IMG/VR virus record: IMGVR_UViG_3300030376_001348
Span: 1-26,718 of that record
Strand: one strand, 5' to 3'
Length of the DNA stretch: 26,718 nt
DNA from: a virus
Taxonomy: Duplodnaviria > Caudoviricetes
Part shown: piece after piece, positions 24,365 to 25,097 of the stretch
Layout: each line of letters opens with the position of its first letter
How positions within the stretch are numbered: position 1 is the first letter of the stretch
Notes under the pieces: model-generated
What the model saw: the letters and a program-made list of their open reading frames with translations, nothing else
The model's database searches: none
What the model was told of the DNA's origin: nothing
Translations under genes and position numbers: made by a program

Positions 24365-24412
24365 TGTTTGTATAGTGAGAATTATATGGTATAGTCCTGT
24401 TTATTACAAACA
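24365..24412. promoter_or_regulatory. Back-to-back bidirectional promoter flanked by an 8-bp inverted repeat
   Basis: Minus-strand TATAAT (24381-24386) abuts plus-strand TGGTATAGT (24387-24395); TGTTTGTA 24365-72 pairs with TACAAACA 24405-12. Confidence 0.6.
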
Positions 24413-24430
24413 CTTAACACAAGTATTTTG

Positions 24431-24586
24431 TTACAGGTGAAGTTGCAATCGGGATGCGGAAAGCTGCTGACTGGCGAGACAGTACACTAGAAAGACAAAG
24501 GCAGTACCCAAGGACTCAAGAACTTGTTAGGTCAAACATCTACCCCTAATGCCCGCTAACGCCCGTACTTACTGGGGTTTCTGTAA
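24431..24586 (+). ncRNA. Candidate structured non-coding RNA divergent from terL
   Basis: GC-rich island with no credible ORF; closed by UUACAGG/UCUGUAA; internal hairpins with purine-rich loops; possible pseudoknot. Confidence 0.55.
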
Positions 24587-24617
24587 AGAATTACCAGCAT
24601 ATATTTCTAGACATACG

Positions 24618-24623
24618 TATAAT
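24618..24623 (+). promoter_or_regulatory. Possible -10 element TATAAT for the early transcript
   Basis: Perfect hexamer just upstream of the hairpin series; no clear -35. Confidence 0.45.
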
Positions 24624-24701
24624 ATAGAGACAGGTCAGGTTAACATATGGTAGTCAAAGACTATACTATGACCAATAAAAGAATTAACCTACTAAATTTT
24701 C

Positions 24702-24759
24702 TATATACTGTATCTTACCTTCCAGACTTCTGGAAGTCAGGTAAGATACTTAGTATATA
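24702..24759 (+). repeat. Bulged hairpin 1 (TCCA bulge, GACTTC/GAAGTC)
   Basis: tatatact-gtatcttacct-[tcca]-gacttc-tg-gaagtc-aggtaagatac-[tt]-agtatata. Confidence 0.85.
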
Positions 24760-24839
24760 CAGTTAAATAAAACAGTATGTAGTCTATTTAAGTTCCCTTA
24801 CTGCCTAATGATTTCCTATACAATATAATAAACTATGAT

Positions 24840-24895: not shown

Positions 24896-25027
24896 ATGTT
24901 TAACTGTATAAAATGTGATATGAATATGTGGAGTGATGAGATACTTGAGAATAAAACTTGTGAACATCATTTTCCATATATGGATATACAAGAACCTATT
25001 GAGTTAGGTCACTCAGAATTATCTTAA
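24896..25027 (+). CDS. 43-aa Zn-finger-like early protein
   Basis: MFNCIKCDMNMWSDEILENKTCEHHFPYMDIQEPIELGHSELS (CxxC...CxxH); GAAAGGA RBS. Confidence 0.7.
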   Translation: MFNCIKCDMNMWSDEILENKTCEHHFPYMDIQEPIELGHSELS

Positions 25028-25097
25028 TTTATACATATCTTAAAGTCTGTCCTTCCGACTTCTGAGAGTCGGACAGACTTTTGGATATATATATAAA
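25028..25097 (+). repeat. Bulged hairpin 3 (TTCC bulge, GACT/AGTC)
   Basis: aaagtctgtcc-[ttcc]-gact-tctgag-agtc-ggacagacttt (25042-25081) with AT-rich outer pairing. Confidence 0.85.

Follow-up and report, generated by a model that had tools for sequence, protein, structure and literature searches.

What kind of element lies next to the large terminase gene of a marine phage, and which function might it have? The window, i.e., the whole stretch of DNA that was analysed, is a virus record of 26.7 kb, which is about 63% complete and contains an SU10-type capsid gene; the phage is a marine podovirus. A preliminary description of positions 24431..24586 had proposed a GC-rich structured non-coding RNA that is transcribed divergently from the terminase gene (terL). 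A packaging-related role like that of the phi29 pRNA had been considered, as no separate gene for a small terminase (TerS) was visible. The complementarities listed at that time were all found, and the GC content of 48.7% exceeds that of the window (34.4%), with only 10 of 2657 sliding 156-nt segments being equally rich. No open reading frame of at least 50 aa overlaps the stretch. The single-sequence fold was worse than chance (z = +2.16; 199 of 200 shuffled sequences fold as well), and thus all support for a fold comes from covariation.

Homologs were collected with four terminase-anchored scans of 80 loci each. A further pattern scan added 90 loci, 89 of which scored 85–146 bits with a covariance model of the RNA; about half of the matches to the first, loose search pattern had been due to chance. 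In all, 200 distinct sequences of the RNA, here called type A, were obtained. The window sequence was aligned with 74 representatives, which were taken from 250 extracted matches and had less than 70% of 8-mers in common. Helix pairs ranked first in a structure-blind mutual information analysis of these 75 rows, and RNAalifold yielded the same nested fold. Over 34 base pairs, 97.0% of the cells can pair, versus 73.7% after shuffling and 30–38% in slid controls. Compensatory, two-sided changes were found in 25 of the 34 pairs, and the covariation score was 0.622 versus 0.192. Because kinship inflates shuffle tests, events were also counted on a tree. Joint changes equalled changes of single columns; one pair each in P2 and P3 had changed jointly 10 and 11 times, respectively, and P5 7 times (for P1c, the pseudoknot and the tertiary pair compare Table 1).

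The architecture consists of a long basal stem, two nested three-way junctions, a pseudoknot between a loop and the 3′ tail, and a tertiary pair between two loops. Over the paired columns 245 G-U cells versus 7 A-C cells were counted, which verified the proposed plus strand and showed that the fold is one of RNA and not of DNA. The covarying core comprises positions 24412–24557; the 5′ end of the gene was derived from the −10 element, and the 3′ end from a hairpin, the sequence of which is not conserved, and a U-tract. A divergent homolog outside the alignment (L746, 76.5 bits) keeps P1c, P2, P3 and an extended P5. At position 4 of the pseudoknot, which is G-C in all 75 rows, it has A-U, and its tertiary pair is C-G. 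It is close to certain that type A is a real structured RNA. It is, however, larger than sketched before, with a 5′ boundary that had been missed by about 30 nt (compare P1a), and it is folded otherwise. The hairpin ACUG/CAGU of the earlier sketch was retained as P4. The strand CGGG does pair, yet its partner is 24552–24555 instead of 24562–24565, and the strand, lying in a hairpin loop, forms a pseudoknot. The hairpin GCGG-AAAG-CUGC and the helix GGCA/UGCC had to be given up (54.3 and 52.3% of cells paired, respectively), a pairing like the pseudoknot ACCCC/GGGGU is possible in just 12 of 145 close homologs, and the terminal stem UUACAGG/UCUGUAA is not conserved, its 5′ bases pairing with 24506–24516 instead. 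Covariation was found, and the alternative of a mere DNA element, which the preliminary description had coupled to its absence, was rejected by the wobble asymmetry and the tertiary covariation.

Table 1. Coordinates of the type A RNA, its structural elements and neighboring features in the window, and of type B RNAs in related loci.
Feature	Position	Strand	Evidence or remark
Type A structured ncRNA	24402..24585	+	Covariation, covariance-model matches, RNA-library contigs (weak)
Basal stem	24412..24532	+	P1a, P1b, internal loop, P1c
P1a	24412-18/24526-32	+	93.7% of cells paired; 6/7 pairs two-sided
P1b	24429-32/24513-16	+	91.3% of cells paired; 3/4 pairs two-sided
ACA/CAAG internal loop, nearly invariant	24433-35/24509-12	+	Alignment
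P1c	24436-38/24506-08	+	100% paired; 1/3 pairs two-sided; variable pair with 6 joint changes on tree
P2 hairpin	24444-47/24455-58	+	98.3% paired; 3/4 pairs two-sided
L2, conserved 7-nt loop of P2	24448-54	+	Alignment
Pseudoknot L2/3′ tail	24450-53/24552-55	+	100% paired in 75 rows; one compensatory event on tree at each of two positions
Tertiary pair, last L2 base:first L5 base	24454:24488	+	A-U in 61 and G-C in 14 of 75 rows; 4 joint changes on tree
P3, invariant G.U at base, closes second junction	24463-68/24500-05	+	100% paired; 5/6 pairs two-sided
P4	24470-73/24480-83	+	95.6% of cells paired
P5, YAGDAA loop	24487/24494	+	C-G in 36 and G-C in 39 rows
Variable 3′ hairpin, then U residues, terminator-like	24557..24585	+	Hairpin of ≤−3 kcal/mol in 100/145 close homologs
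Extended −10 (TG-n-TAnnnT) of the RNA	24387..24395	+	Kept in homologs
terL promoter	−10 TATAAT 24381..24386; −35 24404-24409	-	In 145/170 close homologs
TAnnnT hexamer, candidate convergent promoter	24596..24601	-	Conserved; activity inferred
Terminal-repeat-boundary-like motif (T-tract, ACWTAC, ~23 nt, TTRACA, 5 nt, GTC)	24603..24657	.	Matched by eye to Immanuel3
Large terminase, 637 aa, N-terminal Cys-rich segment and helix-turn-helix	22432..24345	-	Pfam GpA_ATPase, weak HTH_23
Type B RNA	L286:469-683, L318:1412-1626, 145 other loci	- (both named)	Replaces type A in slot

No Rfam 15 family matched type A in a search with covariance models (no match at E ≤ 5 for the window and none at E ≤ 10 for 24380–24620), and according to ARAGORN and Rfam it is neither a tRNA nor a tmRNA. 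A blastn search against cultured phages yielded nothing, and the covariance model of type A had no match in Immanuel3 (see below). Resemblances to RNase P, to cobalamin, ZTP and c-di-GMP riboswitches, to group I/II introns and to the L11 site of 23S rRNA were dropped, because they consisted of common words at positions that vary among the homologs.

The plus-strand extended −10 element that had been noted before was present in 151 of 170 close homologs versus 37 of 1250 background segments, and also in 35 of 53 distant type A loci and 80 of 91 loci with the alternative RNA type B (see below). It abuts the terL −10 of the opposite strand. Covariation and promoter conservation thus strongly support a structured plus-strand RNA with its own promoter, divergent from terL, and on the same grounds type A is a phage gene with transcription of its own, the product of which is a compact RNA of about 185 nt that has tertiary structure. 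The minus-strand hexamer downstream of the RNA is kept as TA...T in 114 of 119 close loci having the adjacent anchor, with variable middle bases; a promoter at 24596–24601 could read antisense through the RNA gene toward terL. An inverted repeat of 8 bp (24365–24372/24405–24412), which is conserved in close relatives, flanks the back-to-back promoters and is a possible operator.

Contigs in four metatranscriptomes, picked for holding this stretch, cover the locus (24407–24572; 24415–24634; 24417–24567 with 24568–24718; 24367–24515); these contigs lack strand and ends, and RNA libraries may contain DNA. The contig 24407–24572 is the sole one over 5.2 kb in run X2 and spans the predicted gene nearly exactly; depth cannot rank genes in these data, and uncovered parts are uninformative. 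The contigs hint at expression of type A.

The closest annotated phages are Streptomyces podoviruses of cluster BF, with a TerL identity of about 26%, and the nearest cultured relatives are the Beephvirinae, which carry direct terminal repeats. A pattern scan of cellular genomes gave 21 matches, two of them true and both on contigs of metagenome-assembled genomes. One type A homolog sits on a contig of an Actinomycetota metagenome-assembled genome, and therefore the host of the window phage is likely to be Actinomarina-like. In 64 other genomes of the presumed host order, to which one of the true cellular matches belongs, no type A copy was found. The contig G063:C30 repeats after 43.8 kb, starting at the RNA (1–148 and 43844–44007), and is probably an over-assembled circular phage genome that was binned with an actinobacterial genome.

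Is the RNA a constant companion of the terminase gene? Type A was present in all 178 loci (not deduplicated) with a TerL at least 60% identical and at least 400 nt of upstream DNA, that is 92/92 at 85–100%, 16/16 at 75–85% and 70/70 at 60–75% identity. In 177 of them the RNA is oriented away from terL, at less than 100 nt from the start of this gene. Of 37 loci with 2.3 kb of flank in the distant clade, which has 51–58% TerL identity, 12 carry type A in the same orientation, mostly 0.8–2.3 kb from terL. Type A was missing from thirty records of this clade, including genomes that are 92 and 95% complete. The view that type A is dispensable, which had been based on these 30 relatives, was overturned, as a different sequence of 170 nt, type B, fills the same slot behind the same type of promoter wherever the slot was readable. 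In type B 99.6% of the cells pair, 11 of 27 pairs show two-sided changes, and a 6-bp kissing helix was found (37 rows); both kissing loops have a palindromic core, and the 3′ part is G-rich. Eight type B and BF loci yielded only chance matches outside the slot when compared with Rfam, and a blastn search of type B against cultured phages revealed only a 27-nt chance match. No type A was detected within 147 type B loci. Of the 86 distant loci in which terL is intact, 31 have at least 2.3 kb of flank, and every one of these contains either A (10) or B (21); 18 with short flanks also had one of the two, and the 37 with neither had shorter flanks. The complete occupancy suggests a needed function.

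The two RNAs are exchanged between closely related phages. On a quick TerL tree the RNA type changes at least 4–5 times, and two A/B pairs have identical TerL proteins (L319/L318 and L300/L301). One A/B pair shares 99.1% identity along a stretch of 3.4 kb that reaches to about 180 nt from the RNA core. Between carriers of A and carriers of B, capsid proteins can be as much as 97–98% identical, and type A spans two capsid types that are about 36% identical. These capsid types (about 372–380 aa versus about 312 aa) are themselves exchanged within one terminase clade, as seen in G036 and G057 versus G037, G043, G002 and others. The pRNA model has at its heart a tight co-evolution of the RNA with terminase or capsid, and the free exchange of A and B rules this out. 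Among 30 genomes no protein family strictly co-segregates with the RNA type, and two helix-turn-helix (HTH) subfamilies are skewed, with exceptions. A downstream DNA word in the putative repeat occurs in 47 of 59 type B versus 2 of 197 type A loci, which could be plain genetic linkage.

The packaging role was weakened by these exchanges, and also by the terminase itself and by the distance of 0.8–2.3 kb between RNA and terL in relatives. TerL contains ATPase and RNase H-like domains, and its N-terminal region contains a Cys-rich segment and an HTH at about residues 60–115, the model being highly confident at 70–110 only. Structural matches of the N-terminus were generic HTHs with Z up to 5.7, and the G20C small terminase ranked 26th with a Z of 5.1, tied with generic HTHs. 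Judged from this model, the N-terminus is possibly a fused TerS. If the HTH stands in for TerS, an RNA does not have to replace it, so the lack of a visible terS gene loses weight as an argument for a pRNA-like molecule. It is still plausible that the RNA is linked to the end of the genome and in this way possibly to packaging or replication. In several relatives (L300, L418, L425-L430) a cluster of small Lys/Arg-rich late ORFs lies upstream of terL, together with a 68-aa Cys-rich ORF that resembles the N-terminal segment of TerL; cluster and ORF are absent from that position in the clade of the window.

Where is the slot located in the phage genome? In BF phages terL is gene 1, and a direct terminal repeat of 275 nt is found about 400 nt upstream of it. 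When the sequence of Immanuel3 is read away from terL, the repeat boundary falls within a run of a T-tract, ACTCAC, 20 nt, TTAACA and GGGTC, which is conserved in four BF phages. This order of elements recurs just past the RNA in marine phages. By analogy with the BF phages, from which the repeat position in marine phages was deduced, the slot would lie just inside the left terminal repeat, the RNA would be transcribed toward the repeat, and the inner boundary of the repeat would be near 24614. The distance between RNA and motif is 160–199 nt in 80 of 82 motif-bearing close loci and 320–339 nt in 36 of 37 distant loci, and the distance between RNA and terL varies from less than 100 nt to 2.3 kb. 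The strict motif was found in 35 of 1357 background segments and was missed in 67 of 149 close and 25 of 62 distant loci, and a profile of the marine motif did not match the ends of BF phages. The motif may also be no more than an early promoter, since TTRACA corresponds to a −35 consensus. Alternating purine-pyrimidine runs of at least 14 were present in 30 of 138 loci beyond the RNA versus 0 of 138 on the terL side, and the Immanuel3 repeat contains such a run of 22. Contig ends are mildly enriched 200–700 nt past the RNA; they map no terminus. A search for guide-like complementarity between RNA and downstream DNA gave longest matches of 8.3–8.9 nt in the own locus versus 8.2–8.8 in controls.

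Several other elements were observed in this region. A conserved Zn-ribbon ORF of about 38 aa, without evident ribosome-binding site, lies just 3′ of the RNA in L319, L300, L286 and relatives. It is common to A and B carriers of the distant clade, where it separates RNA and motif, and it follows type B in 32 of 59 loci and type A in 56 loci, being absent in 141 type A loci. In the window, two long hairpins with a common UUCC-type bulge are present at 24700–24760 and 25030–25093; of 112 relatives, 41 have a similar word on the downstream side of the RNA and none has it on the upstream side. In front of early genes, the hairpins might serve for RNase III-like processing or for the binding of proteins. 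At 24896–25027 (+) there is an ORF of 43 aa, too short for the usual ORF cut-off, that contains Cys/His and has a strong ribosome-binding site. The BF phages have a third conserved element with covarying hairpins between terminal repeat and terL (L456:420-660, L553-L559), apparently in the terL leader; two loci scanned against Rfam gave no match.

The replication genes of RNA-bearing phages were inspected as well. DnaG_N or DnaB_C domains were found in 0 of 17 genomes (15 at least 90% complete), and PHROG profiles, with which 55 selected ORFs out of the 106 in three genomes and 26 out of the 50 in a complete genome were compared, revealed neither a polymerase nor a primase or helicase; such profiles could miss primases or helicases that are divergent. 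An annealing protein and an exonuclease were present. Immanuel3, which has no type A, encodes a DnaB helicase and annotated primases. In one complete genome the minimum of the cumulative GC skew is at the RNA, where it coincides with a switch in the direction of transcription.

It is tempting to speculate that type A is a cis-acting transcript of the genome terminus, which primes replication or licenses the processing of the repeat. We regard this as quite possible, though short of probable, and favour it because no DnaG, DnaB or polymerase was found and because of the terminus geometry, by analogy with ColE1 and T7. Type A would be made by the host RNA polymerase and would act in cis at the genome end, where the folded nascent transcript, or read-through into the repeat, might hold the polymerase or an RNA-DNA hybrid, similar to ColE1 RNA II or the T7 phiOR/concatemer-junction transcript. 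Then, as we infer for the steps from folding to priming or maturation, host replication proteins would be loaded, or the repeat would be duplicated and cut in concatemers; the convergent promoter at 24596–24601 might give rise to an antisense or late switch-off signal. The fixed distance between RNA and motif and the complete occupancy fit this proposal, as does an RNA type that tracks the downstream DNA motif and not TerL or capsid. However, type A has no G-rich strand bias (GC skew of about 0, versus +0.16 and about four GGG runs in type B), complementarity to the downstream DNA does not exceed that of controls, and the closing basal stem and terminator-like 3′ hairpin look more like those of a released, stable RNA; furthermore, the Zn-ribbon ORF intervenes in the distant clade, and the strict motif was missed in many loci. 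A broader version, which we put forward more cautiously as a possibility, is that in tailed phages with direct terminal repeats and without primase or helicase an obligatory folded RNA at the genome end starts replication, or duplicates and cuts the repeat, with host enzymes, A and B being interchangeable and one or both of them perhaps new ribozyme classes.

The look of a released RNA would suit a trans-acting, host-directed RNA that binds or decoys a host protein, e.g., a defence sensor, a nuclease, or a ribosome or polymerase factor, with A and B as alleles under balancing selection. The own promoter, closed stem and terminator-like end, the invariant loop and junction bases, which suggest a binding surface, and the exchange without a change in any phage protein examined or any strictly co-segregating family agree with it, and so, weakly, does the near-exact RNA-library contig 24407–24572. 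Nevertheless, we consider it rather unlikely, because accessory anti-host genes are usually gained, lost and stacked, whereas this slot always holds exactly one RNA and is locked to a terminus-like motif; moreover, the 64 further genomes of the presumed host order offer no host RNA that is evidently mimicked. Compatible with the cis-acting terminus transcript, although unlikely by itself, is the idea that A and B are two new classes of self-cleaving ribozymes that cut a transcript into the terminus. Ribozyme classes swap at one site, and free exchange would follow if any class sufficed, but with about 145 nt the core is bigger than expected of nucleolytic ribozymes. The compact pseudoknotted folds, the invariant junction nucleotides and the invariant G.U are in accord with this idea, and, according to PMC6765202, self-cleaving ribozymes adjoin phage genes; against it, Rfam detected no known ribozyme in the slot of the window and of eight relatives' loci, and RNA-library contigs, which cannot show ends, span the whole core. 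That the monomers form a prohead RNA ring of the phi29 type, via L2-tail pairing in A or kissing loops in B, and scaffold the terminase appears improbable. Similar size, three-way junctions, short loop pairings that are possibly intermolecular (PMC5066667) and a position next to terL near the genome end would match, but unrelated folds are swapped between phages with TerL proteins 100% and capsid proteins 97–98% identical, A occurs with two capsid types, the enzyme is a nuclease-bearing TerL with its own HTH and not a gp16-type ATPase, and the BF relatives are devoid of the RNA. A cis-regulatory leader or riboswitch for a downstream ORF or for terL is very improbable: although the folds resemble aptamers and the small Zn-ribbon ORF starts shortly past the RNA in the A and B loci counted above, that ORF is missing from most type A loci and no consistent regulated ORF is present, pseudoknot strand and 3′ hairpin use different bases, so that no switch is evident, and the fold does not belong to the terL mRNA, which has the other strand. 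Least credible, to the point of being nearly dismissed, is a pac or ori element that acts as DNA only. It would explain the site at a putative terminus, and expression is known just from RNA-library contigs that possibly include DNA; yet the G-U excess over A-C cells, the invariant G.U pairs and the pseudoknot all speak against it, as does the covariation of a single tertiary pair, for which three pair types were seen.

Tailed phages rarely have complex structured RNAs to which a role can be assigned, and the pRNA is the textbook case. In a widespread group of marine phages, one slot that is always occupied is filled by two new RNA families, of which one has a covarying tertiary contact. Their swap between phages with identical terminases and nearly identical capsid proteins is a natural experiment, in which whatever A and B have in common is the function, and it hints at an unrecognised RNA-dependent step in the copying or processing of phage DNA. 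Both RNAs are smaller than 200 nt, and thus cleavage, oligomer state, structure and partners are accessible in vitro, while the third structured element at the same position in cultured Streptomyces relatives offers a genetic handle on how replication starts or ends mature in terminal-repeat phages that have no replication enzymes. In Fremin et al. (2023; PMC10690425), covarying intergenic phage RNAs from IMG/VR are reported, 14 of them upstream of a putative large terminase; the candidates have a mean length of 67 nt and a maximum of 151, and those of the terminase class lie within 25 nt of the gene. A fragment of type A may already be catalogued there anonymously. A literature search, which covered few subscription journals and included PMC5628999, revealed no description of the type A RNA; neither its complete fold nor the tertiary contact nor the exchange of A and B seems to have been described before.

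How does type A compare with known systems? In the Pistol ribozyme a hairpin-loop pseudoknot is followed by an A-rich strand. Type A shares this feature and the phage context with Pistol and other small self-cleaving ribozymes, but it is larger, has another connectivity and matches none of them in Rfam at E up to 10. The phi29 pRNA of 174 nt is, according to PMC5066667, likewise phage-encoded near the left end, similar to the range of about 170–190 nt found here, and has three-way junctions and short loop pairings. In contrast to it, type A has no Rfam match, its covariation-derived fold is another one, with two nested junctions and a tertiary pair, and it occurs in a phage with a nuclease-type TerL and is exchanged without change of TerL or capsid, i.e., without co-evolution. 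The window phage is also not phi29-like, as such phages have a terminal protein and a gp16 ATPase, and its TerL has ATPase and RNase H-like domains. Type A resembles ColE1 RNA II/RNA I (PMC5043065) in being a non-coding transcript that the host polymerase makes ahead of a DNA site, in a replicon in which no primase or helicase was detected, perhaps with a convergent antisense promoter. ColE1 RNA II, however, reaches the origin after about 550 nt and remains there in a persistent hybrid, whereas type A has about 185 nt, no G-skew, a putative priming role, and neither sequence nor Rfam similarity to it. To our knowledge, no conserved folded RNA has been described at the T7/T3 terminus. The geometry of that terminus, with phiOR and the concatemer-junction pause, is similar (PMC3276506): transcription from the terminase-side arm runs toward the terminal repeat, at the end that is presumably packaged first. 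T7 relies on a polymerase of its own, together with gp3.5, and has a separate gp18, whereas the marine phages have a host-type promoter and two alternative folded RNAs.
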